39,434 nucleotides of DNA from Elusimicrobiota bacterium (GTDB lineage: Bacteria > Elusimicrobiota > Elusimicrobia > FEN-1173), in NCBI GenBank assembly GCA_028278255.1, contig JANQER010000241.1, positions 1 to 39,434 of the forward strand, in the 5' to 3' direction. A program made the translations under genes and the position numbers. This document shows, piece after piece, positions 2,570 to 25,306 of this stretch. The notes below the pieces were generated by a model, which saw nothing but the letters and a program-made list of their open reading frames with translations, made no database searches and was not told the DNA's origin. Each line of letters begins with the position of its first letter. The stretch's first letter is position 1.

Positions 2570-4408
2570 ATGTCTACCCATCCTCAAAAAATTCTTTCAT
2601 CCAGCACCATACTGTTTGCCGGAGATTCCGGCGACGGCATGCAATTGGCCGGAGATCAATTCACTGACACCACAGGCGTCATGGGGAATGATTTTGCCAC
2701 TTTCCCCAATTTCCCGGCTGAAATCCGCGCGCCTTTGGGCACACTGCCGGGTGTCAGCAGTTTTCAAATACAATTCTCAGACACCAACATATACACACAC
2801 GGCGATATGGCAGATGTGCTGGTGGCCATTAACCCGGCAGCGCTCAAAGTCAATCTCAACAAAGTCAAACCAGGCGGGCTTATTGTCCTCAATGAAAACG
2901 CATTCAATGAAACAGATTACAAACGCGCAGCCTGGGCCTCAGACCCTCTCACAGACGGCACGCTCAATGATTTCCAAGTCCTTAAAGTGCCTGTTACAGA
3001 CCTGACCAAAAATGCGCTCAAAGACATTCCGCTTAAAATCTCTGAGATTGAACGCTGCAAAAATTTCTTTGTTTTGGGCATGATGTTCTGGCTTTATGCC
3101 AGGAATTTCGATCACACCATTGATTGGATACAAACCAAATTTGCTGCGCGTCCGGAAATTGTCAATGCCAATATTGCAGCGCTTAAGGCCGGACATAACT
3201 ACGCTGAAACCACAGAAACCATTGTGCCCGCACAAACCCATATCCACAAAGCCAAAATGGACCCCGGCACATACAGAAAAATTTCAGGGAACAATGCACT
3301 GGCCATTGGCCTGATCACAGCTGCGCATTTATCTGAGAAAACCCTTTTCTACGCCTCCTATCCCATCACGCCTGCGAGTGAAATTCTGCACGAACTCTCT
3401 GAGCACAAGGAATTCAAAGTCAAAACCTTCCAAGCTGAAGATGAAATAGCCGCCATGGCCGCAGCCATTGGCGCTGCTTTTGGAGGAGAACTCAGTGCCA
3501 CAAGCACCAGCGGACCAGGCATGTGTTTAAAATCAGAAGGACTCAACCTGGCGGTCATGACAGAATTGCCTATTGTCATCGTTGATGTGCAGCGTGCCGG
3601 TCCCAGCACTGGCATGCCCACCAAGATTGAACAAGCCGACTTATTGCAAGCCATGTACGGCCGCAACGGCGAATCCCCAGTAGCGGTATTGGCGCCCAAA
3701 ACACCATCTGACTGCTTTGACATGGCTTTGGAAGCTGTGCGCTTGTCTGTGAAATACATGTCACCGGTGATCTTGCTCTCAGACGCTTATCTGGCGAACA
3801 GCTCTGAGCCATGGAAACTTCCTGACACAGACAAGCTCCCCAAAATCAAGTTGACTCATCCCACAGCTGGAAAAAATCCTTTTCTCCCTTATGCGCGTGA
3901 CCCCAAAACATTGGCCCGCGCCTGGGCCAAGCCAGGCACCCCTGGCTTGGAGCACCGCATTGGCGGGCTCAGCAAAGCGGATTTAACAGGCAATGTCAGT
4001 TATGACCCTGACAACCATGAAAAAATGATTCGATTCAGAGCGGAAAAAATTCAGCTCATGTCCAATGATATCCCCTTGCTCAAAGTCCGCGGTCCAGAAT
4101 CCGGCAAACTTCTTGTTTTGGGATGGGGCAGCACTTACGGGGTAATCCATCAGGCTGTTTCGGAAATCACAGAAGAAGGCCATAAAATTTCTCAAGCGCA
4201 TTTAAACTATCTCAACCCTTTTCCCAAAAACCTCCAAGACATTCTTAAAAATTTCAAAACCATACTCATTCCTGAGCTCAACACAGGCCATCTCAATGTC
4301 CTGATCAAGAACCGATTTCCCGAAACAAAAACAGAGGGGTATAACCGTATGCGCGGGGTTCCTTTTCAAACCATGGAGCTTAAGCAAAAAATAAAAGAAA
4401 TGCTATAA
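2570..4408 (+). CDS. korA: 2-oxoglutarate/2-oxoacid:ferredoxin oxidoreductase, alpha subunit (fused gamma-alpha type)
   Basis: 612 aa. The N-terminus GDSGDGMQLAGDQFT..FPNFPAEIRAP is followed by the alpha-type domain (SYPITPASEILHEL, TSTSGPGMCLKSEG, VDVQRAGPSTGMPT). It is followed by the TPP-binding beta subunit. Confidence 0.88.
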   Translation: MSTHPQKILSSSTILFAGDSGDGMQLAGDQFTDTTGVMGNDFATFPNFPAEIRAPLGTLPGVSSFQIQFSDTNIYTHGDMADVLVAINPAALKVNLNKVKPGGLIVLNENAFNETDYKRAAWASDPLTDGTLNDFQVLKVPVTDLTKNALKDIPLKISEIERCKNFFVLGMMFWLYARNFDHTIDWIQTKFAARPEIVNANIAALKAGHNYAETTETIVPAQTHIHKAKMDPGTYRKISGNNALAIGLITAAHLSEKTLFYASYPITPASEILHELSEHKEFKVKTFQAEDEIAAMAAAIGAAFGGELSATSTSGPGMCLKSEGLNLAVMTELPIVIVDVQRAGPSTGMPTKIEQADLLQAMYGRNGESPVAVLAPKTPSDCFDMALEAVRLSVKYMSPVILLSDAYLANSSEPWKLPDTDKLPKIKLTHPTAGKNPFLPYARDPKTLARAWAKPGTPGLEHRIGGLSKADLTGNVSYDPDNHEKMIRFRAEKIQLMSNDIPLLKVRGPESGKLLVLGWGSTYGVIHQAVSEITEEGHKISQAHLNYLNPFPKNLQDILKNFKTILIPELNTGHLNVLIKNRFPETKTEGYNRMRGVPFQTMELKQKIKEML

Positions 4409-4567: not shown

Positions 4568-5617
4568 ATGTCTTCAAACGAAGAAAAACCAATACCGCCT
4601 GTACCGGACGCACAGCCTCTTTATACCAGGACGGATTTTGTCTCCGGGCAAGAAGTTCGCTGGTGTCCGGGATGCGGCAATTATTCCATCCTGGGCGCGG
4701 TTCAGCAAACCTTGGCCAAATTCAATACCCCCAAAGAAAATTATGTGTTTGTCTCCGGCATAGGATGTTCCAGCCGGTTTCCTTATTACATGAACACATA
4801 CGGGTTTCACACCATACACGGGCGCGCCCCAGCCGTGGCCACTGGCCTGTGCTGTGTGAACCCGCATTTATCCATCTGGGTCATTACAGGCGACGGCGAT
4901 GGGCTCAGCATTGGCAGCAATCATCTTGTTCATGCCATGCGGCGCAATTTGGACATCAACATACTCTTCATCAACAACCAAATATACGGCCTCACAAAAG
5001 GCCAATACTCGCCCACTTCTTTGCAGGGGAAAATCACTAAGTCATCTCCATACGGTTCTCTGGACCACCCCATTAATCCCCTTTGCATTGCCATAGCCTC
5101 TGAAGCCACTTTTATTGCCAGAACACTGGATTCTGATCCCCGCCACATGAGCCAAATACTGGCCCGCGCCAAAGAACACAAAGGCACCTCTTTCATAGAA
5201 ATCTTTCAAAACTGCATCATCTTCAATGACAAAACCTTTGCCCCTGTCACAAGCCGGGAAACGCGTGACGACAGAATGATCTATCTGGAGCACGGCAAAC
5301 CCCTGATCTTTGGCGCCAAAAAGAACAAAACCATTAAAGTCAAAAACCTGCATCCTGAAATTGTGGATTATGATCCGGCCGCAGACCCGGCCGGGTATTT
5401 CATTCATGACGAAAAAGATGTGTGGCCGCACCATCCCTATTTTCTCACACAACTCACATATCCGGATTTCCCTATGCCATTCGGCGTGTTTCGCTGTGTT
5501 CAGACTTCCACATACGATCAGCTCATGGACAAGCAGATTGCAGACGTCAAAGACAAAAGAGGAGATGGAAATCTAAAGGATTTGATATATGGGAAAGAAA
5601 CGTGGAAGATAGAATAA
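4568..5617 (+). CDS. korB: 2-oxoglutarate/2-oxoacid:ferredoxin oxidoreductase, beta (TPP-binding) subunit
   Basis: 349 aa with WCPGCGNYSIL, GIGCSSRFPYY and the TPP motif ITGDGDGLSIGSNHLVHAMRRNLDINILFINNQIYGLTKGQ. AAGGA lies 6 nt upstream of the ATG. Confidence 0.9.
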   Translation: MSSNEEKPIPPVPDAQPLYTRTDFVSGQEVRWCPGCGNYSILGAVQQTLAKFNTPKENYVFVSGIGCSSRFPYYMNTYGFHTIHGRAPAVATGLCCVNPHLSIWVITGDGDGLSIGSNHLVHAMRRNLDINILFINNQIYGLTKGQYSPTSLQGKITKSSPYGSLDHPINPLCIAIASEATFIARTLDSDPRHMSQILARAKEHKGTSFIEIFQNCIIFNDKTFAPVTSRETRDDRMIYLEHGKPLIFGAKKNKTIKVKNLHPEIVDYDPAADPAGYFIHDEKDVWPHHPYFLTQLTYPDFPMPFGVFRCVQTSTYDQLMDKQIADVKDKRGDGNLKDLIYGKETWKIE

Positions 5618-5768: not shown

Positions 5769-6299
5769 ATGAACATCAAATGCCCGTCTTGTGGTTTTGA
5801 AAGCATTGAAGGTGAAGACCGGTGCCAGCAATGTTTGCATTCGCTCATGCAAAGAGATATCCCGCGCCCCAAAAAGGACGACAACATCCAGCATGCCATA
5901 CTCACGGCGCCTGTGTCAGACCTTCTCACAGGACATGACCTTCTGGTGTGCAGTCCCACAGATCCCCTGAACAAAATTGTCAAAATATTCAAAAAAGACA
6001 ATAAAAACTGCGTCCTGGTTTATCAAAAGAAAAAATTAGTGGGCATTCTCAGCAACAGGGACCTCCTGCTGAAACTGGCAGGAAAAGACCAAGACCTCTC
6101 CAAACTCAAAGTGGAAGACATCATGACCAAAGACCCTGGCTGCGTCAAGCCGGAAGACCCCATTGCTTATGCCATCAACAAAATGGCATTGGGCCGGTAC
6201 CGCCACGTCCCGGTCCTCCGGGACGACGGCACCCCGGTCAGCATCCTGGTCATCAAAGATGTGCTCCAACACCTTTCCAAGCGAATAAAAAGCAAATAA
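5769..6299 (+). CDS. zinc-ribbon plus CBS-pair protein
   Basis: 176 aa. The N-terminus carries CPSCGFESIEGEDRCQQC (a four-Cys ribbon). Two CBS repeats follow (KIVKIFKKDNKNCVLVYQKKKLVGILSNRD and AINKMALGRYRHVPVLRDDGTPVSILVIKD). Confidence 0.75.
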   Translation: MNIKCPSCGFESIEGEDRCQQCLHSLMQRDIPRPKKDDNIQHAILTAPVSDLLTGHDLLVCSPTDPLNKIVKIFKKDNKNCVLVYQKKKLVGILSNRDLLLKLAGKDQDLSKLKVEDIMTKDPGCVKPEDPIAYAINKMALGRYRHVPVLRDDGTPVSILVIKDVLQHLSKRIKSK

Positions 6300-7112: not shown

Positions 7113-7838
7113 TTAGGCCAAAGAATTGATTTCACAAAGACCACGGGCCTCAATGCGGGGTGAAATGGGAAACGTTTTATCGCCTGGATAAATAATGGTG
7201 AGATGATTCAAAGACAGATCCTCTAACGCTGTGTTCATGGATTTGGTAACTCGGGGTTTATCCGTATACTTGAATTCGTATCCGAAACGTTTTCCATCTT
7301 TCATAATAAGAAGATCCAATTCCGCTTGATTATGGGTCCCCCAGAAAAATGTCTCATCAGGCGTTGCCCTATGTGCGCGAATCACTTCTTCAAGGGCAAA
7401 ACCTTCCCAGGAAGCTCCTATTTTAGGGTGATGCAGCAGATCATCTTCCGAGGTTATCCCAAGAAGATTGTGAAGTATCCCCGAATCACGAATATACATT
7501 TTCGGTGACTTAACCTGCCGTTTGCCGATATTTTCGATCCAGGGACGCAATTCCCGCACCATAAATGTCCCGATAAGAATATCAATGTATTTTCTTACGG
7601 TGGTATGGGCCATCCCCAGAGAACGACCAAGCTCAGCAGTGTTCATGATTTGTCCATGATAATGACAAAGCATCATCCAAAAACGTCTCAACATCTCAGT
7701 CGGCACCTGAATCCCCAGGGATGGGATGTCCCTTTCAAGATAGGTTGAAATATATGATTTTCGCCACACATACCCGGTCTTTTCCGTATCAGCAAGGAAT
7801 GAAAGAGGAAAACCTCCTTCCTCTTCATCCCAAATTTT
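7113..7838 (-). pseudogene. 5'-truncated remnant of an AAA+ ATPase with a DUF4143 domain (COG1373-like); the ATPase half is missing
   Basis: Track ORF 7113..7769 (GTG start) reads WRKSYISTYLERDIP...TAELGRSLGMAHTTVRKYIDIL...VKSPKMYIRDSGILHNLLG. This is the winged-helix/DUF4143 C-terminal half. In the same frame, family-like sequence (WDEEEGGFPLSFLADTEKTGYV) continues upstream to a TGA at 7839-7841 with no start codon. No Walker A region exists, because the giant ORF ends at 7866. Confidence 0.65.
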
Positions 7839-7865: not shown

Positions 7866-10800
7866 TTATGCATTTGAGCCAATCATCTCAGACAACTTTC
7901 TCAACCGATCAAACTCATCTGTGGCAATCTTAATTACCATGTTCCCTATGATCTGAAGAAGCACAGCTGCCTGACTGTATTGCGGGGTCACTGTCCAATT
8001 CATAATCACTGGTGACAGCACTTGCAATTGAACACCCTTACGCTCAAAATCCATGCTCTGATACTTCTGATCACTAACAAGCCTTTCAATCACTTTATCC
8101 ACAGAACATTTCACCTCATTGTTTGACATAACAATCAGCCTTTGACTTTCTGAACCCAAAGCCTCTGAAACAGACAATTTATCGTCATCCGTCACCACAA
8201 CCACTGGCGCTTCTCCATTTTTTTTCAGCAATGTCTTTGCCACAGTTAAAGCCTCTGTGCGTTCTATGTTCAACAAATTCCCTGGCACATGCACCACACA
8301 AGGCTGATCTGACTTTATTTCATTAATTGAATGAATTTTGGCTTTTTCATGCGCGGCCAAACCAAACCCAAACTCAAACCCTTGTGCCATCAGCGCCAAA
8401 ATCTTCTGCGGACTCAAATCTTCTACAATATCCAGAGTTCTCTGCAACACGCCTATATAAAAGACCATTTCCCTCTTCTGCCCCAAACCCGACATCAAGC
8501 CCACATTTAAACCCAAAACCCTGATCAACGCATCACACTCTTTTGCGCGCTCTTCTATGACTTTCACATTGCTTCTGATTCTGCTCTGCAAAACACCCAA
8601 AACCTCTCTCAACTCCTCTAAATTCTGAAAATTCATCCCGCGCACTAAGCCCTCAGTGGCTTGGAATTGACCCTCTCCCTTGATGGGAGAGGGCAGGGTG
8701 AGGGTGTCCAACAATCCTTCCACATTCTGCCAAGACACATCCTCTGCCTCTTCACTCTCCCCCAAAAATAACCGCAGTTTAACTTGGTTTTTCACTTGCA
8801 CCGGATCAATATCCACCTCAATTCTCGGATTCAATTTCTCCGTCTCATCAGACAGCTTCTTCACCTGAGGCAAAACAGTCTGATCCAAAACATATTGAAT
8901 CCATTCCTCTTCACTCAAAGAAGATTTTCCCAAAGGCAAAGTGATAACAAACGTGGTGCCATGGTCTTGAGGATATTCATCCACATGCCGGGTCTTAAAA
9001 GAAATCGTCCCGTTGCACCTCTCAATGCATTTCTTTGCAATATGCAGTCCAAGACCTCTTGACAAATTTCTGCCTCCTGTATCCAACTTGCTTGACACCC
9101 CGCGCTCAAAAACAGAATCTCTTATTTTTAATGGAATGCCCTGGGCATTGTCAGAAATTCTTATTTCCATGTCTTTCCCTTGATTCACAATTTCAGTCTC
9201 AATTCTCATTTTTCCTGAAATATCCTGGAGTTCAACCTCTCTTTCACTTATTTGTAATCCTTGTTTTTCCAATAACCCACGCATGGTTATATCATCTTTC
9301 ATTTCAGCAATAAAGTACTGCGCATTTTGAATGATATTTGCCAATGCCCGAAACAATGCCAATTTATTCGTTTTTAAAATTTGATGACCGCCGCCATAAT
9401 GAATGACCGTGTTCTCACGATTCACAACCTCATGTGCATGCCCGGCAAAAATCACATCAAACAAGTGATCCAAATCCACTAATTCTTCTTCATCACGAAA
9501 TGCTGCAAAATAATCTCTTAACACATACTGAACAAAAACAATCTTCAGTGCATCCTCCTTAGCTGAAAAATCATCCACAGAAAGTTCTTGATATATCTTT
9601 GTTAATTTTTCTCTTGCCATCTCAAATAAATAAACCTCGTCAATTTTACTTAAAATATTTTTTATTTGCTTGTTCGCCTTATTCACATCAGCAATTGTTT
9701 TTCCATTTTGAACTTGCTCCAAAAATGTTTTTAAATTTTTAGACAAGTCATAAAACCCACTCATCCAATTCCTATCCGCTTGTACCAAAGCATTATCATC
9801 AGACAAAAACTTCAATTGAGCCCCAAGAACACTCATCGGGCTCGTTAAATCATGCGCATTCGCTGCTGCCGCCAGTTTGGCCTCTTTCAGGGTCCTGCCA
9901 TTCATATCTTGAACACCAACAAGATAAACCAAATTATGACTGTATTCAGGATCAGGGAATGTTTCAATAATATCCAGCCCATTGAACGTCAACACCTCTT
10001 CCACAACGCCATTGCTTTCTTCTCCCCACAAAACCAAAAAACCTTCCTCAATCCCAGGCAATTGAGAGACTCCTTGAGCAAGTTCTGAAATAAAACTTCC
10101 TCTATCCCCGTCATGAAATCCAGCCAATTTTTTCGGTCTCATCACCCCCTGTCTCACATACTCTTTTCTAATCACCTCAAAACAAGTCAAAAGTGCTTCA
10201 TCTGACAAAGATTCCAGATCAGTGGCACCAGTGAGTCGTTTAAGCTTACCAATGCGTTCTTTTCTTTCCTCTTCAGTCAACGTCTCAAAAAATGGAGAAT
10301 TTGAACAAACCAGTGCTATTTTTTTATCACCAAAAACCGGTTCCCTTTTTTCATTCAGAACATTATTCCCGACTTTGGCCGTCACCCTAAAACCTGCCTG
10401 TTTGGCAAAAAATCTCATATTGGCAACTTCAAAAGGATTAATGCCCACTGCATAAATGTCCCGATTTGAATTTGTCCCAAGCCAAGCCACCCAAGCATCA
10501 ATCCCAGTCCCTGGCCCCACCACCAAAACACCACCTTCTTTATCCTCACCCAAAGCCTGGCCTACTGAGTAAACAGTCAACATATAAATGCGATCCGCTA
10601 AATAATTGTCACCAGCAGCCGGCGAATAAACTGTGGGAAAAACAGGAAATATGACCCGGGGATTTTCACTCTGACTGTCATAAATTTTTTCAAGCGCTTG
10701 ACCAAACCCCCTATCTTCAAGGCCAAACTCAACCAAACGCAACGCACCTTGTTCAACCCCCACAAACTCAGCAAAAACAAATGGCTTATTCTCTGGCTCA

Positions 10801-13800
10801 GGAGCTTTTATCACATACTCTGAAAGCCCTCTTTCCTCCCTATATCGTGTGATAGCCTCCTTAGATTGAGCACACTCTTTCTGAAATCTGATCCATTTAT
10901 TGATGGCTTGCTCATCATCAAAACCTGGTATCTCAAAATAGAATTCAGAAAAATCAAAATAATGATAGGGACACTCATCCCCATCGGAATGCTCTCCTAA
11001 AAGCTCTTCAGACACCACAGGGAAAATAGAAATCAAATATCCATTTTCATCAAACAACAATTCAAACCCACGTGTTGGTCCTAACTCATTAGACAACACA
11101 TCAATCCCCACTGGTGGATCAACAGGATTTTGACGTTCAGGGACACGAACCCTCATCACAGTCAAGCCGCTTGCCTGATCCACCTCTTCCTCAACCAACT
11201 CTGCCTGATGAAGTTCAAGCGCTTTTAACAACTCATAAGCCGGCATGTTCTTAACCTTTTCCAACAGATCATCAATATTGTGTCCATGGACGTTTCCTTG
11301 TTCCACACACATCAAATAATAAGGGCTGATCCCCCACAAAGAATCTTCTCCAATATTTCTTTCATAGGCAAAATAATCAGTGCTTGTCCCTCCGCCAGTG
11401 GAGATTGTCAAAACAGGCATATTTAACCCAGTCTCTCCTATCTCCCTCTCTTCCTGTTGCAGAGCCACCCTCTTTTCTTCATCCAAATCTAAAGCAGCTT
11501 TGACCAAGGGGGCTGTTTCACCCCCGCTCACAAAAGCAAATAATTCCCCATTGTCAATTCGTCCTTTAATATGATGTGCAATGGCATAGCTGCCCCTATG
11601 ATACGGTTCATCTTCAAAGTTCCCCTGTGGACTGTTCCAATACACAGCCTCCACTTCATCCAAAGCTCTTTTATATTTTTCAATGGTTCTTGGGCCAATA
11701 TCCAAGCCATCCACATCATCCTCTGCCAAAACAACCTCCACACCTCTTATCTTCAAATTTCCAATCCATTTGTTGTATTGCCTTTCCTGAACAATCCCAG
11801 CCAGTTTACCTCCAATAAGAATTTTATCTCCTTTTCGCAGTTTCTCTGAAAAATCTTGAATTAAAGGGATTTTGTCTTCTTTAATCCCGCCAAAAATAGC
11901 AGCCATAGAGCCACGCTTATCATGTTTTATGTATCTCAACATTTTTTGATGAATAAGCAGCTCCCTCTCCATCCAAAATCCCTTGACAGAAGGCATCGAC
12001 GTTTTCAACATCTCCACCACAGTGGTGTCAGACCGATGCGAAACCGGGAATCCATCTAAAACAAACACATCCCCTAATCTTGACACTTGATACGCCAATG
12101 CCTCTCTTTCAGCCGGGTCATCCGACTGCTCACGCCAATCAAATCTCGTATTATCAAGCATGGCCACATCACCCGCGCTCATGCCATGGATGTGATCGAT
12201 GATCTCGTCTGTTACAACAGCGTATCTTTTCTGACGGACTTCTTTGCCCCGCATCAAGTGAACATCTCTGTTCATAAGCTGACTCACTGCATTTCTCACA
12301 TGAGAAATATCATAGGCTTCTTCGACCCCCTCACCTGATGGACGACCAGAATGTGTCACAAGCACCACTTTTCCACCATTATTTAAAATATACTGCATTG
12401 TATTCACAGAGGCATTCAACCGGATATCATCAATTTTCTCTTCTTTTGGATCAAAATGCACATCATTAAAATCAACCCTCACCACAAAAGTTTTCCCCTT
12501 GATCGCATGAGGCGGAACCATATAAAGAGACATGGCATTGCTTTGTCTCAGCTCATCTATAAAACCACGGACCATTTCTGAGTCAAGATTGTCTCCCAAC
12601 CGCTCAATTTCCTCCTCCCATTGATACCCCCATATCCCAAGAAAGAAATCTCTGAATTCAGGAGGGACATTCCCCTGAAAACCAAGACTTTTCACATAAA
12701 GAGACATGGCTTTAAGTGCATTGGGCCAATGGGATTTCATCTCTGGATCCATCAAAATCTGCAAACAATTTCTTATATTGAATGTCAAAATATCTGGTAA
12801 TTGAGAATGATCTTCTCCACCTTTATTCTCATTCATACTTGCCATGGCCATAGACAATGGATATTCAACCTCATAAGGCCGTGCAGATCCTTGACCAGAG
12901 CCAGAGGGCTGATTAATCAGGGCGGGGGCAAGCCCCGCCCCTACGGATATATTCTTAAAATAATCTTTTGGGGAAACCTGATCAATACCGGTTATCCAAT
13001 TCACCACATACTGAATAGGCATATATTTCATCCACCCCATGGACGGCAACAATTCTTGCACAGGAATCCATCTGATTTCAAATTTCATCCCATGAAACAA
13101 ACCAGGCCAAGCACGTAACCCAAATTTTTCAGTTGGGGCCGTTGGACCGAGACGAAGGAGGCCGTGACTTTTTCGACGACAAAAGCGAGCGCAATGCCGT
13201 AAGCATTGGGCGAACTTGTGGAGGACTAAAAAGTCCGGCATCATTTGTCGAATCCAGGCACCCAATTGAAAAGTTTGGGTTAACACTCTTTTCCCTGTTA
13301 TTGATTTCTTTTGAACAGATTTCAGCTTAATCCTGGTAATGGCCCTGGTGCCATCTTTACTGTTTTCAGCTGTGATGGTCGCTCCCATGGCTTCCAAAGC
13401 CATGCGCGCAGCAGGCATGCCCACACCCCCAGAATAAAAAGAATCAGATTCTGTATCCTCAGTATTCACTTGAGCTGCCCGTCTTGCATAATCCACTTGA
13501 AACAATGGCTGAAGCCCCATCCAATCATGCAAAGGAGACAAAAATTTTCGAGGAAATGCTTTTGGGTTTGACACAATTAATTCAACAAATCCATTACCAG
13601 CTTCAACCACAGACAAATCAATGGACTTTAATGCTTTTTCCATACCTTGCTCTTGATTGACTTTAAGTGCATTTTCATAAATCCATTCAAGAGCAGCACA
13701 AAGCAACATGGGATCAGCCAATACTTTTTGATGGCCAATAGTCAAGTTATCAAGCTTAAACTCTCCATTTTTTGTATGAAACTCATGATTATTAAGCAAT

Positions 13801-16800
13801 TTTTTCAAATCTATTTCTTGAATTTGCGCCAATTTTGGATCAAACATGCGCAAAACGATACCCACAATATCAAGACCCCGCTTAATTGTGACAAGATAGC
13901 CTTTCCCTTTTTGGATGTTCTGCATTTTGCCCCATAATTTCTGCAAATATGATTGATAATCCTTTAACCATTTAATCCATATGCGGTACAATTCATCAAC
14001 ATCTTTTTTCCTAAATTGTCCTTTTAACAAAAAGCTCCTGACAAAACCAATCACCTGGGCATGATAAATTCTAAACTGTTCATCAAGACCACGAAATTGT
14101 TTTTCTAATAATTTCTTTTGCTCAGGATCACTTCGAAACACATAACCCAACACAAATGACATATTTGCCATTTGATTCATTAAAGCAAACCGTCCGCCAT
14201 GCCCTGTGACTGCAACAGAATTAACAATAAGCTGCGCTTTTTCATCATATGACTTTTGAACTGCATACCAAAAATCTCTGGCAAAACGCATGGCCACCAC
14301 AACACCAAAAGACAAAAAAATCAATGGCAATGAATAATGAGACAACACAAACACCTGCAAAATAGCATCAGCAGAAAACAAATCCAACCAATACAAGCCA
14401 AGCATAAAAACAGCATTTAAAACCAATGTCAAAACAAACCGAGACTGCACAAAAGAAGACACATAAAATCGAATTAAAAAACCCCGCTGTTTTTTGCCCA
14501 TCTCCTTTGCAGCACGCAGCAAACGCGCTTTTGCTATGACAAGAATGCCAAACTCACTTAAAATTTCCAGCCAAACCCTTTTCCAATCAAGCACATTTTT
14601 TTTGTACTGCACCAAACACCTCATCAATGTATGGCAAAACAAAAACACTGGCACAGACCACATCAACCCAATCACAAAAGCTGTCCCAGGATCAAACCCA
14701 TATGACATGAATATCACAGGCAACCCAATCAACCCACCCACACGAAACACAGCTTCTTCCCAAACCCCCAACAACAAATAATAAATCCCTCTTCCTTGCC
14801 ATGTTTTAAATCTTTTCATAGGCATAACAAAAGGCTCTAAAATATCAGCTGCAGCTGACCTGGCACCATGGCCATAAACAGATCCAAACACATTCACAAT
14901 AAATTGATTTTGAAAAATAAATGATTGAATCATTTCTAGCCAATAACTTAAACTCTCAACCAAAGCAAATCTGAATAAAGAAGACTTAAACAACACCAAC
15001 ACATAATCCTGGCCATTGACTGTGATGTCTGCTGTATGAATGTCATGCTCAAAACCCAATTTTTCCAACTGATGCTCAGCCATGGACAATTTTTCTTTTG
15101 TCATAAGCGCCAAATGGCATCTGGTTTTGCCCAATTTGTATCGAAAAACACTCAAAAACCCATTGTCTGTGATTTTTTGCTTAATCTCCATTTTAAATGA
15201 TTGTTCAATATCCAAAACCTCTGTCAAAGCCTTATCCCCAGCTTCAAGTTCAGACATATCTGTGTTTTTTAAAGCTGATTCAAATGCTGGCACAAAAAAA
15301 CGGTTCAATGATTGAAAAACCTGGCCTCGCATGGCTTTGATTTGAGACACATCCTGCACCATCACACGTTCAGCAGCCAAAAAAATCTTTTCTCCAGCCA
15401 ACATTTTCTCCAATGGAATCGGATCTCTGGCAAACACATTTAAATAATCATGGTTTTTGGGCACAGCTGTGATTTGAGGCGTGACCACCATATAAGAAGC
15501 ATTTTTTTGATGTAAAAGTTCTGTTATCCCTTTTGTGTGAAAGCCACCAGCCACTAAAACAGAAATAACAGGCAATTGATCCGTTGTCATCGGCAATGGC
15601 TGCTTCCCTAAGGCCACTGCACGGGCTGTCCCTACACCTGTCTCTTTGCCCTTTGCTCTTTGCTTGTTGAGCAAATTATCAACCAATGATTTGTTCCGCT
15701 TAATGGCCAATGCGCAAAATTGCTCAAAAGGCTTCAACAAGTTGCGGGGCAGGTCTTGGTCTATGGTCTTTGGGTTCTTGCCGCCAGGTATGATCCCAGT
15801 TTGTCGGATGGGACTATCGTCTTTGGTCTGTTGCTTATATTCTTCCCAATCCTTTGGGGTCATTTGATTGTGAATCAATTTTTCCAGCAAATGCACATAC
15901 CGGGTGGCTGTGACCAATTTTTTCTGTTCAGGTGTCACAGCCAAGGATTGTGCCACTGCTTTTTCCAATTGGGACAATTCTTCTAACAATTGATTGGGAT
16001 TCATTTTTTCTGACAATTTGACATAGTCAATATAAGCATTGAATTGAGCCAGAGATTTTAAGTCCATGCCCTGTTTTTGGCAAAGCCGGCGCAATAAATC
16101 ATAATATGCGCCATAAGCCATGCGGCCTGTTTTATAATCCATGCTTTGCTGAACAAGATGATTCAATTGATCAGATGATAATTTGGCACACAGCTTTTTA
16201 ATCAGTGCATGCCGCTGTTTTTCCACAACACCAAAATCAAGACTGTCTTCCCTGTCCAATGCCTGAATCAAGAGACAACTGTTTTTGAATTTTTGATTTT
16301 TGATTTGTGCTTTTTGATTGAGAAGCAAATACTTCACATATTGACCCAAGGCCTCTTCATGATTCTGATAAGCAGTGGCTTTCTTCTCATACTGTTTAAG
16401 TTCAGGAGAATAAACTTTTTGTTTTTGAGCCATAAGACTGCTTTTAAGATCTGACACAAGGGCTTGGACTTTGGTTTTGTTTTTAAGTGAGTCTTTGAAC
16501 GCCTGAATATTGGTATGATAGGTGGACAGGTCTTCAATTCCCCAAAGTTCAACAAGAGACTGATTGTCAATCGTCAGTGCAGAATATTCTGGTCCGCCAA
16601 TGTATCCTTCTTTTAAAAAATAATCAGCCAACCCTTTTGTGATATCATCATCAGAAAAATCCCTATACGCGTCCACAGCAAAAGCCCCGCTGGCGCCTTC
16701 AAGACCGATCAAAATGGATTTTTGATTTTTGATTTGCTGGAGTTCAAGCTCTCCCGTCTTTGATCTTTGGTCTTCGGCCTTTGGCCTTCGCTCTGTGGAC

Positions 16801-17291
16801 TTTGGACTTTGGTCTTTGGTCTTCGGTCTTCGGTCTTCGGTCTGACTGATATTGTCAATTATTTTTGCAATATTGCGTTGCGCTTCCTCAATTCCATGGG
16901 CATCCTGAATATGAACCACAAAAGGCGCATTAGGATCTGCTGACACATGTATTTCCCGAACAGAACCATAGACAGAAACAAGGCTGGCCAATCTATTGCC
17001 AACAGTATGAGCAGGGGACAATGAAGGAACCGAACTGCGGCTATTGATTGGGAAAGTTTGATGGGATGCCTTAGTGGACAGCTGTTGAATGGGTTGAACA
17101 GGGGAACTGGACAACAAAGCCAATTGAGCCTTTAAATGATTTTGCCGTTGGCCTCTCTGATCAAGCGCTTGCCTGCGTTCTTTCCAAAAACCGATTTCAG
17201 CAGAATACACGCCAATGACATTGGTGAGCACCAACACCACAGCCAAAAAAACACTCAATACTGATTTTGTCAATGTGCTAATAGTTATCAT
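7866..17291 (-). CDS. giant multidomain membrane protein (3141 aa): signal anchor, large ectodomain, CPBP-type membrane protease motifs, degenerate GHKL ATPase, phosphoglycerate kinase domain, SAM-dependent methyltransferase domain, HisKA/HATPase_c histidine kinase, unassigned C-terminus
   Basis: One stop-free frame. Motifs, N to C:
- hydrophobic N-terminus, aa 1-30
- EEAVFR (nt 14742-14759) and FLFCH within a polytopic block
- YENALK (nt 13662-13679) plus GGVGMPAARMALEAMG (nt 13383-13430)
- PGK motifs from RVDFN to STGGG (nt 11361-12533)
- VLVVGPGTGID (nt 10497-10529) and SNSPFF (nt 10287-10304)
- H-box NAHDLTSPMS (His codon 9852-9854), N-box LANIIQNAQ, G1 SDNAQGI, G2 RGLGLHIA
The ATG at 17291 has no obvious Shine-Dalgarno sequence. 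A TATAAT (reverse strand, 17299-17304) lies 7 nt upstream. Confidence 0.85.
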   Translation of the reverse strand: MITISTLTKSVLSVFLAVVLVLTNVIGVYSAEIGFWKERRQALDQRGQRQNHLKAQLALLSSSPVQPIQQLSTKASHQTFPINSRSSVPSLSPAHTVGNRLASLVSVYGSVREIHVSADPNAPFVVHIQDAHGIEEAQRNIAKIIDNISQTEDRRPKTKDQSPKSTERRPKAEDQRSKTGELELQQIKNQKSILIGLEGASGAFAVDAYRDFSDDDITKGLADYFLKEGYIGGPEYSALTIDNQSLVELWGIEDLSTYHTNIQAFKDSLKNKTKVQALVSDLKSSLMAQKQKVYSPELKQYEKKATAYQNHEEALGQYVKYLLLNQKAQIKNQKFKNSCLLIQALDREDSLDFGVVEKQRHALIKKLCAKLSSDQLNHLVQQSMDYKTGRMAYGAYYDLLRRLCQKQGMDLKSLAQFNAYIDYVKLSEKMNPNQLLEELSQLEKAVAQSLAVTPEQKKLVTATRYVHLLEKLIHNQMTPKDWEEYKQQTKDDSPIRQTGIIPGGKNPKTIDQDLPRNLLKPFEQFCALAIKRNKSLVDNLLNKQRAKGKETGVGTARAVALGKQPLPMTTDQLPVISVLVAGGFHTKGITELLHQKNASYMVVTPQITAVPKNHDYLNVFARDPIPLEKMLAGEKIFLAAERVMVQDVSQIKAMRGQVFQSLNRFFVPAFESALKNTDMSELEAGDKALTEVLDIEQSFKMEIKQKITDNGFLSVFRYKLGKTRCHLALMTKEKLSMAEHQLEKLGFEHDIHTADITVNGQDYVLVLFKSSLFRFALVESLSYWLEMIQSFIFQNQFIVNVFGSVYGHGARSAAADILEPFVMPMKRFKTWQGRGIYYLLLGVWEEAVFRVGGLIGLPVIFMSYGFDPGTAFVIGLMWSVPVFLFCHTLMRCLVQYKKNVLDWKRVWLEILSEFGILVIAKARLLRAAKEMGKKQRGFLIRFYVSSFVQSRFVLTLVLNAVFMLGLYWLDLFSADAILQVFVLSHYSLPLIFLSFGVVVAMRFARDFWYAVQKSYDEKAQLIVNSVAVTGHGGRFALMNQMANMSFVLGYVFRSDPEQKKLLEKQFRGLDEQFRIYHAQVIGFVRSFLLKGQFRKKDVDELYRIWIKWLKDYQSYLQKLWGKMQNIQKGKGYLVTIKRGLDIVGIVLRMFDPKLAQIQEIDLKKLLNNHEFHTKNGEFKLDNLTIGHQKVLADPMLLCAALEWIYENALKVNQEQGMEKALKSIDLSVVEAGNGFVELIVSNPKAFPRKFLSPLHDWMGLQPLFQVDYARRAAQVNTEDTESDSFYSGGVGMPAARMALEAMGATITAENSKDGTRAITRIKLKSVQKKSITGKRVLTQTFQLGAWIRQMMPDFLVLHKFAQCLRHCARFCRRKSHGLLRLGPTAPTEKFGLRAWPGLFHGMKFEIRWIPVQELLPSMGWMKYMPIQYVVNWITGIDQVSPKDYFKNISVGAGLAPALINQPSGSGQGSARPYEVEYPLSMAMASMNENKGGEDHSQLPDILTFNIRNCLQILMDPEMKSHWPNALKAMSLYVKSLGFQGNVPPEFRDFFLGIWGYQWEEEIERLGDNLDSEMVRGFIDELRQSNAMSLYMVPPHAIKGKTFVVRVDFNDVHFDPKEEKIDDIRLNASVNTMQYILNNGGKVVLVTHSGRPSGEGVEEAYDISHVRNAVSQLMNRDVHLMRGKEVRQKRYAVVTDEIIDHIHGMSAGDVAMLDNTRFDWREQSDDPAEREALAYQVSRLGDVFVLDGFPVSHRSDTTVVEMLKTSMPSVKGFWMERELLIHQKMLRYIKHDKRGSMAAIFGGIKEDKIPLIQDFSEKLRKGDKILIGGKLAGIVQERQYNKWIGNLKIRGVEVVLAEDDVDGLDIGPRTIEKYKRALDEVEAVYWNSPQGNFEDEPYHRGSYAIAHHIKGRIDNGELFAFVSGGETAPLVKAALDLDEEKRVALQQEEREIGETGLNMPVLTISTGGGTSTDYFAYERNIGEDSLWGISPYYLMCVEQGNVHGHNIDDLLEKVKNMPAYELLKALELHQAELVEEEVDQASGLTVMRVRVPERQNPVDPPVGIDVLSNELGPTRGFELLFDENGYLISIFPVVSEELLGEHSDGDECPYHYFDFSEFYFEIPGFDDEQAINKWIRFQKECAQSKEAITRYREERGLSEYVIKAPEPENKPFVFAEFVGVEQGALRLVEFGLEDRGFGQALEKIYDSQSENPRVIFPVFPTVYSPAAGDNYLADRIYMLTVYSVGQALGEDKEGGVLVVGPGTGIDAWVAWLGTNSNRDIYAVGINPFEVANMRFFAKQAGFRVTAKVGNNVLNEKREPVFGDKKIALVCSNSPFFETLTEEERKERIGKLKRLTGATDLESLSDEALLTCFEVIRKEYVRQGVMRPKKLAGFHDGDRGSFISELAQGVSQLPGIEEGFLVLWGEESNGVVEEVLTFNGLDIIETFPDPEYSHNLVYLVGVQDMNGRTLKEAKLAAAANAHDLTSPMSVLGAQLKFLSDDNALVQADRNWMSGFYDLSKNLKTFLEQVQNGKTIADVNKANKQIKNILSKIDEVYLFEMAREKLTKIYQELSVDDFSAKEDALKIVFVQYVLRDYFAAFRDEEELVDLDHLFDVIFAGHAHEVVNRENTVIHYGGGHQILKTNKLALFRALANIIQNAQYFIAEMKDDITMRGLLEKQGLQISEREVELQDISGKMRIETEIVNQGKDMEIRISDNAQGIPLKIRDSVFERGVSSKLDTGGRNLSRGLGLHIAKKCIERCNGTISFKTRHVDEYPQDHGTTFVITLPLGKSSLSEEEWIQYVLDQTVLPQVKKLSDETEKLNPRIEVDIDPVQVKNQVKLRLFLGESEEAEDVSWQNVEGLLDTLTLPSPIKGEGQFQATEGLVRGMNFQNLEELREVLGVLQSRIRSNVKVIEERAKECDALIRVLGLNVGLMSGLGQKREMVFYIGVLQRTLDIVEDLSPQKILALMAQGFEFGFGLAAHEKAKIHSINEIKSDQPCVVHVPGNLLNIERTEALTVAKTLLKKNGEAPVVVVTDDDKLSVSEALGSESQRLIVMSNNEVKCSVDKVIERLVSDQKYQSMDFERKGVQLQVLSPVIMNWTVTPQYSQAAVLLQIIGNMVIKIATDEFDRLRKLSEMIGSNA
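12920..12941. repeat. GC-rich palindrome GGGCGGGGCAAGCCCCGCCCC read through in frame inside the giant ORF
   Basis: It is near-identical to 37708-37728 inside the glcD-glcE-like ORF. Both are translated as AGLAPA. Confidence 0.8.
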
Positions 17292-19076: not shown

Positions 19077-21221
19077 GTGAAGAGGTATGCTGTGGATAAT
19101 ATAACAGCCACAAACTTATTCTTAATGGCCGGGCTTATAGACAAGGATGAGGTCAAAACCGTTCTTGAGGAAAACAGCAAGAAATCCGGTGAAAAGATTG
19201 AAGACACCATGGTCCGCCTGCACTTTGCTTCGGAGCAGGAGCTGACCAAAGTCTATGCCAAGCATTTGGGGGTGCCTTATATTGAGCTGAGCTGCATCCG
19301 GGCTGACCAAAAAGCCATTTCCTCAGTGCCCATGACGCTGGCCAACCAGCACAATGTTCTTCCTGTATGGATAGAAGACAACACCCTATTTCTTGCCATG
19401 GAAAACCCTGAAAACAAAACAGCCATTGAATCAGTCCAATCCACCACAGGCATGAATGTCAAACCCCATATGTGCGCGCCAATTGATATTGCCTCTGCCA
19501 TTGATGAATATTATCATGTGGATGAATCCATTAACGAATACATCAAAAATGTGTCTTACCGGGAAAGCATTGAACTGCTCTCAGGCAGTGTGTCTTCAGC
19601 GCCGGCCTCAAAGCAAGACGAAGCTGTTCAGCATTTCCTCAATGCGGTTCTGTTCCAAAGCCTCTCCAATCACGCCGAATCAGTGATGCTTCAACCCAGA
19701 CAAAAAGACCTATTGATTCTCAATCAAATTGACGGCATATCCTATGAAGCCATGCATGCGCCCAAATGGATCATCAAGCCATTCGTGTCTTATATCAAAG
19801 CACAATGCCGCATGCCCGCTTCTGAAACCAGTGAACAGCAGCAAGGCCAAATAAAAATCCGCGTGGAAGAAAATGTGTTTGAATGCAAAATAATTGTTCA
19901 ATCCGGTGTTTACGGCAGCCATGTGTACATACGGTTTATTAATCCACATAAACGTTTTTTGGCCCTGGATGAACTGGGCTTCAGTCCTGACCTTGTGTCT
20001 GATATCAAACACACAATACACAGCGCCAAAGGAACTCTTTTGCTCTGCGGCACCTCAGGCAGCGGCAGGACAACCACCCTATACAGTCTGCTGGCAGACG
20101 CTCTCCGGCACAAACAAATCGTGACTTTGGAAAATCCGGTTGAACACCCTCTGGCAGGCGCTAAACAAGTATGTGCGAATGAATCCAGTGGAATATCACG
20201 CTCCCTGTATCTGGAAACAATTTTCAGCGTGCAGCAGGACATTGTTTATGCCGGAGACATCCTTGACAGAAAAATCGCTGAAAATATACTGCAGGCCTCA
20301 TTAAAAAACCGTTTGGTCATGGGATCCATGCACGCAAAAAGTTCCATTGCGGGCATCCGGCGCCTGTTGGACATGCCGGTCCCGCCTGACCTGGCCGCGA
20401 CTGGCCTGTGCGGCGTCCTGACGCAAAAGCTTGTTCGCACCCTCTGCGATCATTGCCGGACCCCGCATGAGCCCAGCGAAGAGGATGCTCAAAAAATTCA
20501 GGCCCTCATTGGCCGGGAACCGGATTTTGTTTTGTACAAAGGCAAGGGGTGCGTCAAATGCCGCCGCACCGGATACCAAGGACGAATTGGGATATTCGAA
20601 TTTTTGAAAATCACTGATCCTGTACGCGCCATCATCAGACAAAACCCGGACAGCGCCCAATTAAAAGAAGCTGTTGAAAAAAACACCATGAAAACGCTTC
20701 TGAATGATGCCATGGACAAACTTCAGCAGGGCATCACCACGTGGGAAGAAATCAAGCGGGTGATTCTCACTGACTGCGATGATCTCCCTGCTGCTTCAGG
20801 GGATGACTCACTTGCCGCTTCATTGCCGGACACAAATGACTTCAAAGGATTCAAAATTCACATATGCGATGATGAACCGGCTGTGGCGCATCTCTTTGAA
20901 AAACATTTGAAGCATCAAGGTTTTTGCACAAATGTCTCTTACAACGGCAAACAAGCCCTTGAAAAGATCGCTGTTGAAAAGCCTCATCTGCTGGTCATTG
21001 ATGTCATGATGCCGGAACTGAACGGACTGGAAGTGATCAAAACACTGAAGCAAGACGTGACCACTGCTTTTATTCCCATTATGATCATTTCCAATAAAAA
21101 CACAGCCCGGGACAAGCTGAAAGGATACGAATCAGGCACAGACGATTATCTGCCAAAACCGTTTTTACCGCAAGAACTGCTGATCAGGGTAAAATCTTTG
21201 CTCAAAAGAGTATATGTATGA
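19077..21221 (+). CDS. GspE/PilB-family secretion/pilus ATPase homologue with degenerate catalytic motifs, fused to a C-terminal response-regulator receiver domain
   Basis: 714 aa with a GTG start.
- T2SSE_N-like N-terminus: LFLMAGLIDKDEV...FASEQELTKVYAKHLGVPYIEL
- Walker A reads GTSGSGRTTT (Arg codon AGG 20067-20069 where Lys is expected)
- Asp box LENPVE, Walker B region YAGDILD, His box GSMHAKS
- tetra-Cys CDHC...CVKC is retained
- REC domain about nt 20850-21215: ICDDEP, LLVIDVMMPELNG, IISNK, LPKPF. Confidence 0.85.
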   Translation: MKRYAVDNITATNLFLMAGLIDKDEVKTVLEENSKKSGEKIEDTMVRLHFASEQELTKVYAKHLGVPYIELSCIRADQKAISSVPMTLANQHNVLPVWIEDNTLFLAMENPENKTAIESVQSTTGMNVKPHMCAPIDIASAIDEYYHVDESINEYIKNVSYRESIELLSGSVSSAPASKQDEAVQHFLNAVLFQSLSNHAESVMLQPRQKDLLILNQIDGISYEAMHAPKWIIKPFVSYIKAQCRMPASETSEQQQGQIKIRVEENVFECKIIVQSGVYGSHVYIRFINPHKRFLALDELGFSPDLVSDIKHTIHSAKGTLLLCGTSGSGRTTTLYSLLADALRHKQIVTLENPVEHPLAGAKQVCANESSGISRSLYLETIFSVQQDIVYAGDILDRKIAENILQASLKNRLVMGSMHAKSSIAGIRRLLDMPVPPDLAATGLCGVLTQKLVRTLCDHCRTPHEPSEEDAQKIQALIGREPDFVLYKGKGCVKCRRTGYQGRIGIFEFLKITDPVRAIIRQNPDSAQLKEAVEKNTMKTLLNDAMDKLQQGITTWEEIKRVILTDCDDLPAASGDDSLAASLPDTNDFKGFKIHICDDEPAVAHLFEKHLKHQGFCTNVSYNGKQALEKIAVEKPHLLVIDVMMPELNGLEVIKTLKQDVTTAFIPIMIISNKNTARDKLKGYESGTDDYLPKPFLPQELLIRVKSLLKRVYV

Positions 21222-21311
21222 TGAGCAAAGGCCAATCCCATCCGGCGAGCAGGGACCATACCTCGCGGCATGGAGAGCATAGAGCATGGGAATTGACTGT
21301 TGGAGGATTTT

Positions 21312-23648: not shown

Positions 23649-23738
23649 CTTATTTATTATTTATTTTTTTATACAATTTATTGAAAAAAAGTTACAATAT
23701 AACCGCATTTCAAGAATCAACAATAACGAGGACTTAAT

Positions 23739-24110
23739 ATGGCACAAAAAATACTCATAGTGGATGATTCAAGATTAACCAGAGCGATTATCAAAAATGC
23801 TCTGTCAGAAGCAGGATTTGAAGTGGTTGGCGAGGCGGAAAACGGCCGTGTGGCTGTTGACATGTTCAACCAATTAAAACCTGACCTGATCACCATGGAT
23901 CTGATTATGCCGGACGTGGACGGCATGCAAGCCACAAAAGAAATCCTGGGGAAAGACCCGCAAGCCAGGATTCTTGTGGTCACCTCACTGGGACAAAAAC
24001 TTCTGGAAGAAGATGCCATGAAAACCGGCGCACGCGGCATGATTGCCAAACCTTTTCAGCCACAAGAACTCTTAAGCGCTGTCAAAGAAGTTCTTGACAA
24101 AACATCCTAA
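23739..24110 (+). CDS. cheY: single-domain CheY-like response regulator
   Basis: 123 aa with ILIVDDSRL, LITMDLIMPDVDG, VVTSLG and IAKPF. GAGGA lies upstream of the ATG. Confidence 0.85.
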   Translation: MAQKILIVDDSRLTRAIIKNALSEAGFEVVGEAENGRVAVDMFNQLKPDLITMDLIMPDVDGMQATKEILGKDPQARILVVTSLGQKLLEEDAMKTGARGMIAKPFQPQELLSAVKEVLDKTS

Positions 24111-24214
24111 CCCGGGTATACCGGGAATGTAAAATTCACTGGTGTGTATTAAAATGCAAAATAAAGATTTGAAATCTGCAAACAGCTTGTTTGCCGTCTA
24201 AACAAGGATTCACT

Positions 24215-24844: not shown

Positions 24845-24850
24845 GGAAAA

Positions 24851-25216: not shown

Positions 25217-25306
25217 GATACGACAGGATTCTACATGTAGCACATGTAGAAAATGTAGAATTTAGAACTGGCATGACAAAATAATTTCTAGAAACCTTCA
25301 GAATTT

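Follow-up and report, generated by a model that had tools for sequence, protein, structure and literature searches.

Several proteins in which phosphoglycerate kinase (PGK) is fused to other domains have been described, namely the kinetoplastid PGKL proteins, organized as PGK-CNB-HTH-TMD (TMD standing for transmembrane domain), the PAS-PGK proteins and the PGK-TIM of Thermotoga maritima (PMC7729029). Some of these multidomain PGK-like proteins are associated with the membrane or the flagellum, some are thought to be regulatory and not glycolytic, and some are catalytically dead (PMC7729029). Metabolic enzyme domains are also found within the Archaeovorin-type giant proteins of Omnitrophota, in which TPI, GPI, FBPase, PGM/PMM, aldolase, PPDK, GT5, HATPase_c, HAD and NUDIX domains are embedded, and whose N-terminal regions are mostly devoid of identifiable domains except for C39 or S8 peptidases; PGK is absent from the main text devoted to them (West-Roberts et al. 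2023, 10.1101/2023.11.21.568195). Elusimicrobiota and Margulisbacteria have been reported in the literature to be enriched in very large uncharacterised proteins. We analyzed here a PGK-like domain located in the middle of a giant open reading frame (ORF) from an Elusimicrobiota bacterium, carried by contig JANQER010000241.1 of assembly GCA_028278255.1, whose 39,434 nucleotides constitute the window to which all coordinates below refer. Sequence comparison places this domain in a separate and divergent PGK-like clade and distinguishes it from an ordinary glycolytic enzyme.

The giant ORF lies on the minus strand at 7866..17291 (9,426 nt) and encodes 3,141 amino acids (aa) with no stop codon in frame, the corresponding NCBI protein call (P0001) being 3,126 aa long. 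The first nucleotide of residue i is found at 17291-3(i-1), and aa 1587-1977 correspond to nucleotides 11361-12533 of the minus strand. The sequence-only reading of the window had listed there eleven PGK motifs in canonical order, and we located all of them on that strand at exactly those coordinates: AMSLYMVPPHAIKGKTFVVRVDFNDV (aa 1586-1611), DDIRL (aa 1621), VTHSGRPSG (aa 1645), LDNTRFDWRE (aa 1712), VLDGFPVSHRS (aa 1744), AIFGGIKEDKI (aa 1798), LIGGKLA (aa 1825), DIGPRTI (aa 1864), VYWNSPQGNFE (aa 1883), FVSGGETA (aa 1920) and ISTGGGTS (aa 1963). As for the possibility raised in that reading that the segment might score below the threshold of the PGK family, it is removed by the match of the giant protein to Pfam PF00162, which reaches 200.3 bits (E 6.4e-59) for a gathering score of 27; the isolated module gives 207 bits, in two stretches. 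A phmmer search against the PDB retrieved 46 PGK chains and nothing but PGKs, the top match being the T. maritima enzyme (1vpe, 1.2e-37). The NCBIfam model for the bifunctional PGK/TIM (NF010569) gave 173 bits for a cut-off of 883, with a match restricted to the PGK positions and no TIM domain.

The region aa 1480-2000 was then modelled with AlphaFold2 from an input alignment of 48 sequences, and the prediction obtained has a predicted local distance difference test score (pLDDT) of 91.3 and a predicted template-modelling score of 0.91. Foldseek matched this model to PGK structures, including those of the human and T. maritima (1vpe) enzymes, with E values of about 1e-26 and template-modelling (TM) scores, normalised on the target, of 0.74-0.80. 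The closest superpositions were obtained with closed complexes of human PGK, 2x13 and 2wzb, with a root-mean-square deviation of 3.1 A. As modelled, the domain embedded in the giant protein is a genuine, complete and folded two-lobed PGK fold. Its catalytic core, delineated by Pfam, by phmmer against the PDB, by AlphaFold2 and Foldseek and by the alignments, extends over aa 1587-1995 (11307..12533, minus strand); the N-lobe bears the 3-phosphoglycerate (3PG) basic patch, while the C-lobe is shortened, with a remodelled nucleotide pocket.

Bona fide PGKs, including bacterial enzymes and that of one Woesearchaeote, score 434-551 bits on PF00162 in a single stretch, against the 207 bits of the module. 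The identity of the latter with canonical PGKs does not exceed 34%, with a mean of 31%, whereas canonical PGKs share 45% identity on average among themselves, and even its top value lies below the minimum observed among them. In a neighbour-joining tree, the divergent sequences were split from 30 canonical PGKs with a bootstrap value of 100/100, and the domain was grouped with the proteins that we designate P0093, P0094, P0095 and P0213 (89/100).

Only four proteins displaying more than 32% identity with the module were found when 5.8 billion clustered proteins were searched. P0093 (602 aa, 61% identity) is a stand-alone protein with an N-terminal hydrophobic helix, presented here as transmembrane, P0094 (504 aa, 52% identity) is a stand-alone protein encoded beside umuDC-like genes, and P0095 (566 aa, 51% identity) is the product of a stand-alone gene in GCA_043809745.1. 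P0096 is a fragment in which an LMWPc (low-molecular-weight phosphatase) domain precedes the PGK-like module. The closest relatives, which belong to other uncultivated bacteria, thus display 51-61% identity over the whole module and share with it the N-terminal extension as well as the derived features of the active site. A profile search performed with the clade on 1.84 billion representatives added P0213 (806 aa), in which a HAD hydrolase domain stands before the module, the small proteins P0214-P0217, and PGK-like domains in large proteins, namely P0218 (1,187 aa), P0219 (3,102 aa), P0222 (2,167 aa, combining HATPase_c, PGK-like and HAD domains), P0223 (1,951 aa), P0226 (1,339 aa), P0227 (3,082 aa) and P0228 (2,151 aa). 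In addition, a GTDB scan revealed in a Marinamargulisbacteria metagenome-assembled genome (MAG; CAIUCY01, locus L007) a 504-aa ORF of the same subclade, with an ORF layout similar to that of P0094. Close loci amount to two in 185,579 species-representative genomes and one (L011) in the JGI metagenomes; judged from these searches, the PGK-like clade is rare.

According to the sequence-only reading, a once independent pgk gene had been captured into the giant ORF. A free-standing origin is indeed reasonable, because the nearest relatives, P0093, P0094, P0095 and the Marinamargulisbacteria ORF, are stand-alone genes. What does not hold is that this gene was a canonical pgk, in view of the 207 bits, of the identity of at most 34% and of the clade separated at 100/100. 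Concerning the partners of the module, PGK-like modules are repeatedly fused to phosphatases, either HAD (P0213, P0222) or LMWPc (P0096), and such a pairing of a kinase with a phosphatase hints at a cycle operating on a common phospho-substrate. The representative library also yielded other odd PGK architectures. P0220 and P0225, of about 795 aa, consist of two PGKs in tandem, P0343 is a PGK carrying an intein splicing domain, and P0219 has a second, partial PGK-like repeat at aa 1185-1343.

The active site was audited in an alignment of human PGK1 with the domain, its relatives and 48 canonical PGKs. Human PGK1, of which our copy was checked to be identical to PDB 2xe6, serves as the numbering reference. 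The residues of the site for 3PG and 1,3-bisphosphoglycerate (1,3-BPG), whose roles are given in PMC7729029, are kept in the domain: D23, N25, R38, H62, R65, R122, H169 and R170. The earlier assertion that the Arg and His residues of the basic patch are all retained is thus borne out for R38, H62, R65, R122, H169 and R170. Among the residues of the C-lobe and of phosphoryl transfer, K215, D218, K219, N336, P338, G340, E343, G372, G373, T375, T393 and G394-396 are likewise kept, so that the loss of essential catalytic residues, for which that reading advised to look, was not found at K215, K219, G372-373, T375 or G394-396.

On the other hand, the equation of these motifs with those of canonical PGKs is only partly right: the motifs are present, but GGAKVxDK has become GGIK-EDK, with a spacing between K215 and K219 shorter by one residue, the GGGD(S/T) motif reads SGGET (G371S and D374E), and two segments of the C-domain, of about 18 and 25 residues and containing L256 and F291, are deleted. 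Further substitutions are G166P, G238K and V341N, and D374 is a Mg ligand. An insertion of about 20 residues follows GGETA, and the C-terminal helix is replaced. In the PGK of Bacillus stearothermophilus, the adenine pocket is hydrophobic and formed by Leu237 and Val321 (PMC7729029), which are equivalent to human L256 and V341 by our own numbering correspondence; both positions of this adenine sandwich are gone in the domain. The retained residues therefore indicate that the phospho-acid site and the contacts with the phosphates and the ribose survive, whereas the adenine pocket does not. Taking a hydrophobic adenine pocket together with the Mg ligand Asp374 as the mark of a bona fide glycolytic PGK, the domain shows deleted L256 and F291 segments, V341N and D374E instead.

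These features are not peculiar to our protein. GGxK-xDK, SGG(E/S)T, STGGGTS, the deletion of the L256 and F291 segments and the replacement of V341 by a polar residue were observed in 15 of the 15 divergent sequences. The sister subclade formed by P0219, P0223 and P0226-P0228 is even more derived, with D23N, N25D, N336E, E343R/K and D374S, and its PGK-like domains are without the four-helix extension described below.

Altogether, we consider it fairly probable that this PGK-family domain is maintained by selection, within a small divergent clade of paralogues, as an active or ligand-closing cassette that acts in cis, and that it is not a glycolytic enzyme. The unit would be the module aa ~1496-1995, made of a four-helix extension followed by the two-lobed PGK core, and a giant protein anchored in the membrane would have acquired it by fusion as a cassette. 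The family of that protein would combine a constant N-terminal module (N-module) and a transmembrane cluster with swapped cytoplasmic enzyme cassettes. The N-lobe would bind a 3PG-like phospho-acid through R38, H62, R65, R122 and R170, together with D23 and N25, and the C-lobe would bind the phosphates and the ribose of a nucleotide through K219, N336, E343, T375 and E374. Since the hydrophobic adenine sandwich is lost, the base specificity, and possibly the phosphoryl donor, would differ from those of the ATP-specific PGK. On closure of the hinge, the phosphate being transferred would come into contact with K215 and R38. The domain would be translated within the giant polypeptide and act in cis beside a histidine-kinase core. 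It is probably competent for catalysis, as suggested by the strict conservation of K215, K219, R38, G372-373 and G394-396 at an overall identity of only 50-60%, and the existence of stand-alone and phosphatase-fused relatives would favour an enzymatic role. We infer from the features above both the altered nucleotide specificity and the action in cis.

Several points weigh against this proposal. The phylogeny is distance-based, its canonical sample is biased towards sequences resembling the domain, and long-branch effects are possible. The chemistry could be altered or even lost as a result of the D374E substitution and of the one-residue deletion by K215. The retained residues double as binding residues and may be compatible with a non-catalytic sensor. 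In terms of evolution, the path could have led either from a free gene to the giant fusion or from the splitting of a giant protein to free genes. Finally, a post-translational cleavage of the giant protein is possible.

A non-catalytic metabolite sensor is the main rival of the cis-acting cassette, although we regard it as unlikely. The domain would then be a pseudo-enzyme whose hinge closure on 3PG or 1,3-BPG plus nucleotide informs the downstream histidine-kinase core of the state of glycolysis or of the energy status. In favour of this view, the residues involved in binding are conserved, PGK is classically known to work by hinge bending, and the multidomain PGK-like proteins of kinetoplastids include catalytically dead forms for which regulatory roles have been proposed (PMC7729029). 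Moreover, the ATPase domain of a histidine kinase and a putative H-box belong to the same polypeptide, and proteins with receiver (REC) domains are encoded nearby. The former, a HATPase_c domain at aa 2644-2788 (8928..9362, minus strand), is recognised by Pfam with 58.5 bits for a cut-off of 26.4, and NCBIfam sensor-kinase models match the same region. The H-box, ANAHDLTSPMSVLG (aa 2477-2490, 9822..9863, minus strand), was identified by eye and contains the H-box-like sequence AHDLTSPM at aa 2479, and no HisKA match was obtained with Pfam even at E 10. Nevertheless, the catalytic residues K215, G372-373 and T375 are as well conserved as the binding residues, no signalling output is present in the closest relatives, which are either stand-alone or fused to phosphatases, and the H-box is some 500 residues away from the PGK-like domain, with a methyltransferase-like region in between. 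It should be added that the sequence-only reading had placed two kinase-type ATPase domains next to the PGK-like domain. The downstream one is the HATPase_c domain just described; the upstream one, at aa ~1195-1323 (13323..13709, minus strand), is degenerate and remains below threshold, with 16.7 bits and E 0.01 over positions 4-109 of the 111 of the HATPase_c profile, and by our reading by eye its G1 box is not conserved.

Coming back to the cis-acting cassette, its N-terminal border bears on another alternative, that of a captured housekeeping pgk. In this case, translation initiated internally at aa 1587, or proteolysis of the giant protein, would yield a domain providing the cell with glycolytic activity; otherwise, the domain would regenerate ATP locally for the neighbouring ATPase domains. 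The domain has an intact fold and keeps the catalytic set, a Met is found at the canonical distance from RVDFN, no other PGK is encoded within the 39-kb window, and cleavage of giant Omnitrophota proteins into several products has been proposed (10.1101/2023.11.21.568195). However, conservation among the relatives P0093-P0096 and P0213 extends about 100 aa beyond the N-terminal side of the PGK core, over a region that corresponds in our protein to aa ~1496-1586 (12534..12806, minus strand). As judged from the alignment of the relatives and from AlphaFold2, this clade-specific extension is predicted to form four helices (model residues 22-106, with pLDDT averages of about 73-95 over blocks of 10 residues), and it gave no match in Pfam or in the PDB. 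Because the conserved extension continues upstream of M1587, this Met is internal to the module; its position is occupied by R, V, L and L in relatives, and no Shine-Dalgarno motif precedes the ATG at 12533. Promoter-like and terminator-like sites in 11000-13400 were at the level of shuffled sequences. The idea that this Met marks the start of a free-standing PGK has thus to be abandoned. The third-codon-position G+C content (GC3) of the module is 0.40, versus 0.50-0.53 in the housekeeping genes of the contig. With, in addition, its 200-207 bits against 434-551 for true PGKs, the archaeal one included, its separate clade at 100/100 and the loss of the residues flanking adenine, a housekeeping PGK translated from an internal start appears unlikely from the sequence features, and we judge the captured housekeeping gene as a whole quite improbable.

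The giant ORF in which the cassette is inserted has a GC content of 41.5%, a GC3 of 39% and a strong GC skew, whereas the neighbouring genes sucC, porA, the T2SSE genes, ispG and polA display 47-50% GC and 50-53% GC3. Its codon usage and composition are even along the whole ORF, unlike the flanks; a foreign origin or a very different expression are possible causes of this deviation. A recent capture of the PGK-like module was considered and rejected because its codon usage is typical of the giant ORF, with an L1 distance of 0.247 where sliding segments of equal length gave 0.287 +/- 0.034.

From the N- to the C-terminus, the ORF comprises the N-module, a transmembrane cluster, the degenerate HATPase-like segment, the four-helix extension and PGK-like core, methyltransferase-like motifs, the H-box-like motif and HATPase_c, and this full layout is a singleton among the 5.8 billion clustered proteins. 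At its N-terminus, aa 10-28 (17208..17264, minus strand) form a hydrophobic anchor or signal segment according to hydropathy, with a topology deduced from it, and are followed by the basic juxtamembrane sequence FWKERRQA, for which the family consensus is ExxFWxERRxA. The conserved N-module occupies aa ~93-640 (15372..17015, minus strand), as delineated by the family alignment and AlphaFold2. Hydropathy then suggests about 4-6 transmembrane helices at aa ~830-1005 (14277..14804, minus strand). Within this cluster, at aa 844-891 (14619-14762, minus strand), WEEAVFR (EExxxR) and FLFCH (FxxxH) were noticed by eye, which are similar to motifs one and two of the CPBP/CAAX-type intramembrane proteases. 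Possible S-adenosylmethionine (SAM)-methyltransferase-like motifs, located after the PGK-like domain and before the kinase core at aa 2253-2335 (10287..10535, minus strand), were also noticed by eye, VLVVGPGTG (aa 2253) being similar to motif I of SAM-methyltransferases and CSNSPF (aa 2326) to motif IV. The methyltransferase-like, DHp-like and CPBP-like readings of these regions found no support in Pfam even at E 10. The regions aa 1060-1480, 1978-2640 and 2801-3141 gave no sequence match in the PDB.

A search with the whole protein retrieved 91 other giant proteins of 1,750-5,250 aa, which match only its aa 1-650, with 22-40% identity. Among the named homologues, most come from MAGs of Elusimicrobiota and others from Omnitrophota and Auribacterota. 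A hidden Markov model of the N-module also matches P0219, P0223 and P0226-P0228 (E 1e-154 to 1e-179), which sets the size of this family at a minimum of 96 giant proteins (>=96). As these latter proteins also carry a PGK-like domain, its association with the N-module is recurrent; in P0219, P0223 and P0228, the PGK-like domain is found just behind a hydrophobic cluster at about aa 616-750. Eight residues of the N-module are invariant, D130, H132, Q138, E198, R532, G582, G583 and H585. AlphaFold2 predicts for it an alpha/beta core with a large helical insertion, with pLDDT >85 over most of aa 100-610, and no match was obtained in Pfam (at E 0.1 for the giant protein and at E 1 for five family members), in a PDB profile search or with Foldseek. 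Its pattern HIQDAH...LEGA...GGFH suggests a metal-dependent hydrolase-like site. A TIKI/ChaN/TraB-like hydrolase was considered on its own account and found no support in Pfam, the PDB profile search or Foldseek, apart from a lone and faint PF04187 match in P0227. The module also contains, at aa 152-181 (16749-16838, minus strand), a charged low-complexity quasi-repeat linker, EDRRPKTKDQSPKSTERRPKAEDQRSKTGE, which AlphaFold2 predicts to be disordered. The 649-aa gene found upstream of the stand-alone P0095 was examined as a split-off N-module, and shows no similarity to it.

In most members of the family, transmembrane clusters are found beyond the N-module and are followed by unrelated cassettes. 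These comprise enzymes of glycogen and sugar metabolism (4-alpha-glucanotransferase, glycogen phosphorylase, GT4/GT5, UGPase, PMM/PGM), enzymes of central metabolism (PPDK/PEP-utilising domains, hexokinase, FBPase, GDH), signalling or regulatory domains (Ser/Thr kinases, PP2C, RelA/SpoT), and others (NUDIX, HAD, M48 plus ABC1, AAA plus vWA).

One could imagine from such an organization that the giant proteins are effectors or polyproteins, in which the N-module would direct export or processing and the cassettes would act on another cell, for example through a futile ATP-consuming cycle with the phosphatase cassettes. The constant head and variable cargo across at least 96 proteins, a cargo that includes RelA/SpoT, NUDIX, HAD, PP2C and protein kinases, the repeated fusion of PGK-like modules to phosphatases and the link of giant proteins from related phyla with predation or host association would all fit. 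Yet neither Pfam nor PADLOC revealed a secretion-system or toxin-immunity signature, the PADLOC defence-system scan giving no match, the occurrence of multiple transmembrane clusters inside the protein points to a resident of the membrane, the ATP-using domains imply a cytoplasmic location, and the stand-alone relatives are without export signal, except for the single transmembrane helix of P0093. We thus hold this explanation to be very improbable. Lastly, an assembly chimera, or separate genes joined by a sequencing error with an independent PGK-like gene, is hardly credible: the contig does come from a MAG, the exact architecture is a singleton and the relatives of the module are stand-alone genes, but 9.4 kb are open in one frame, the ORF is homogeneous in composition and codon usage and distinct from its flanks in both, the homologous extension runs unbroken into the upstream ORF sequence, the N-module and the PGK-like domain are combined in many independent giant proteins, and no promoter, terminator or ribosome-binding signals are found at the junction.

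The best matches of the IspG encoded on the contig are from Elusimicrobiota, with no more than 54% identity. Divergently from the giant gene, on the plus strand, a group at 19077-26362 starts with two tandem GspE/PilB-type secretion ATPases (19077-21221 and 21300-23648), each with a C-terminal receiver domain, which precede a CheC-like protein (24191-24844) and, further on, a REC-CheC protein (25307-26362). The proteins of this group are candidate partners of the histidine-kinase core of the giant protein. Directly downstream of the giant gene, a 218-aa ORF (7113-7769, minus strand) carries a DUF4143 domain only. It may be a truncated gene, because DUF4143 usually forms the C-terminus of AAA-type ATPases. 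Further away, two small proteins with a CBS-domain pair (2011-2487 and 5769-6299, plus strand) flank the subunits of a 2-oxoacid:ferredoxin oxidoreductase (2570-4408 and 4568-5617).

One would also wonder what could be the benefit of building such domains into giant proteins. A broader view, which we put forward as doubtful at this stage, is that two linked and undescribed things are at hand: PGK-like paralogues with a new donor or acceptor specificity, and giant membrane proteins that use metabolic-enzyme cassettes as metabolite-gated switches. If this were true, the donors or acceptors of the PGK-like proteins could be, for example, a nucleoside triphosphate used independently of its base, pyrophosphate or polyphosphate, or the chemistry could involve a different acyl-phosphate. 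Hinge-bending cassettes (PGK-like, hexokinase, PMM/PGM, PPDK, FBPase, glycogen enzymes) would gate kinase, phosphatase and histidine-kinase outputs, and enzymes would have been recruited on a large scale as sensor domains in Elusimicrobiota and neighbouring phyla.

There are also practical consequences. Automatic annotation would call the domain and its free-standing relatives "phosphoglycerate kinase", a name that is already borne by one relative in NCBI and by one giant relative in JGI. Metabolic reconstructions based on MAGs of Elusimicrobiota, Margulisbacteria and the like could therefore wrongly be given a step of glycolysis, or overlook a novel activity. With its phospho-acid site conserved and its nucleotide site rebuilt, this PGK scaffold would constitute a natural experiment in kinase specificity, and the small stand-alone homologues can be expressed and assayed. 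The giant protein itself would offer a tractable member, at the 3-kb scale, showing the same logic of metabolic cassettes in a membrane giant as the Omnitrophota proteins of 30,000 aa and longer. Neither this PGK-like clade nor the N-module family was found to be described in the literature, our search of which was incomplete.

In comparison with known systems, the domain resembles canonical PGK (EC 2.7.2.3; human 2xe6 and 2wzb, T. maritima 1vpe, B. stearothermophilus 1php) by its two-lobed Rossmann-type fold, with a TM score of about 0.8, and by the 3PG basic patch, K215, K219, N336, E343, T375 and G394-396. It differs from it by an identity of at most 34%, a Pfam score lower than half, the deletion between K215 and K219, G166P, G371S, D374E, V341N, the lost L256 and F291 segments, the insert of about 20 aa, the replaced C-terminal helix and the added N-terminal four-helix extension. 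Within its own subclade, P0093, P0094, the Marinamargulisbacteria ORF, P0095, P0213 and P0096 are free genes or two-domain proteins, while our module lies midway along a membrane protein of 3,141 aa. The giant proteins P0219, P0227, P0228, P0223 and P0226 combine, as does ours, the N-module with a PGK-like domain of the same divergent superclade; in these, however, the domain belongs to the sister subclade and has no extension, and the other cassettes differ, such as the PPDK of P0219.

Like the Archaeovorins, which also come from uncultivated bacteria related to the PVC (Planctomycetes-Verrucomicrobia-Chlamydiae) group, our protein is very long, is predicted to cross the membrane several times and embeds metabolic enzyme domains, but Archaeovorins are 10-30 times longer. 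Against a length of at least 30,000 aa and a richness in HEAT, GT5 and TPR domains, it has 3,141 aa and no HEAT, TPR or GT domains in the Pfam scan. A parallel can also be drawn with the kinetoplastid PGKL and PAS-PGK and with PGK-TIM, in which PGK is likewise fused to sensory, regulatory or other enzyme domains. The lineages and the partners are unrelated, and our domain keeps the catalytic residues, unlike the "dead" kinetoplastid forms. PGK fusions and giant modular proteins with metabolic cassettes are thus known; what is of interest here is a family of paralogues without the adenine pocket and its recurrent pairing with an unannotated N-module.

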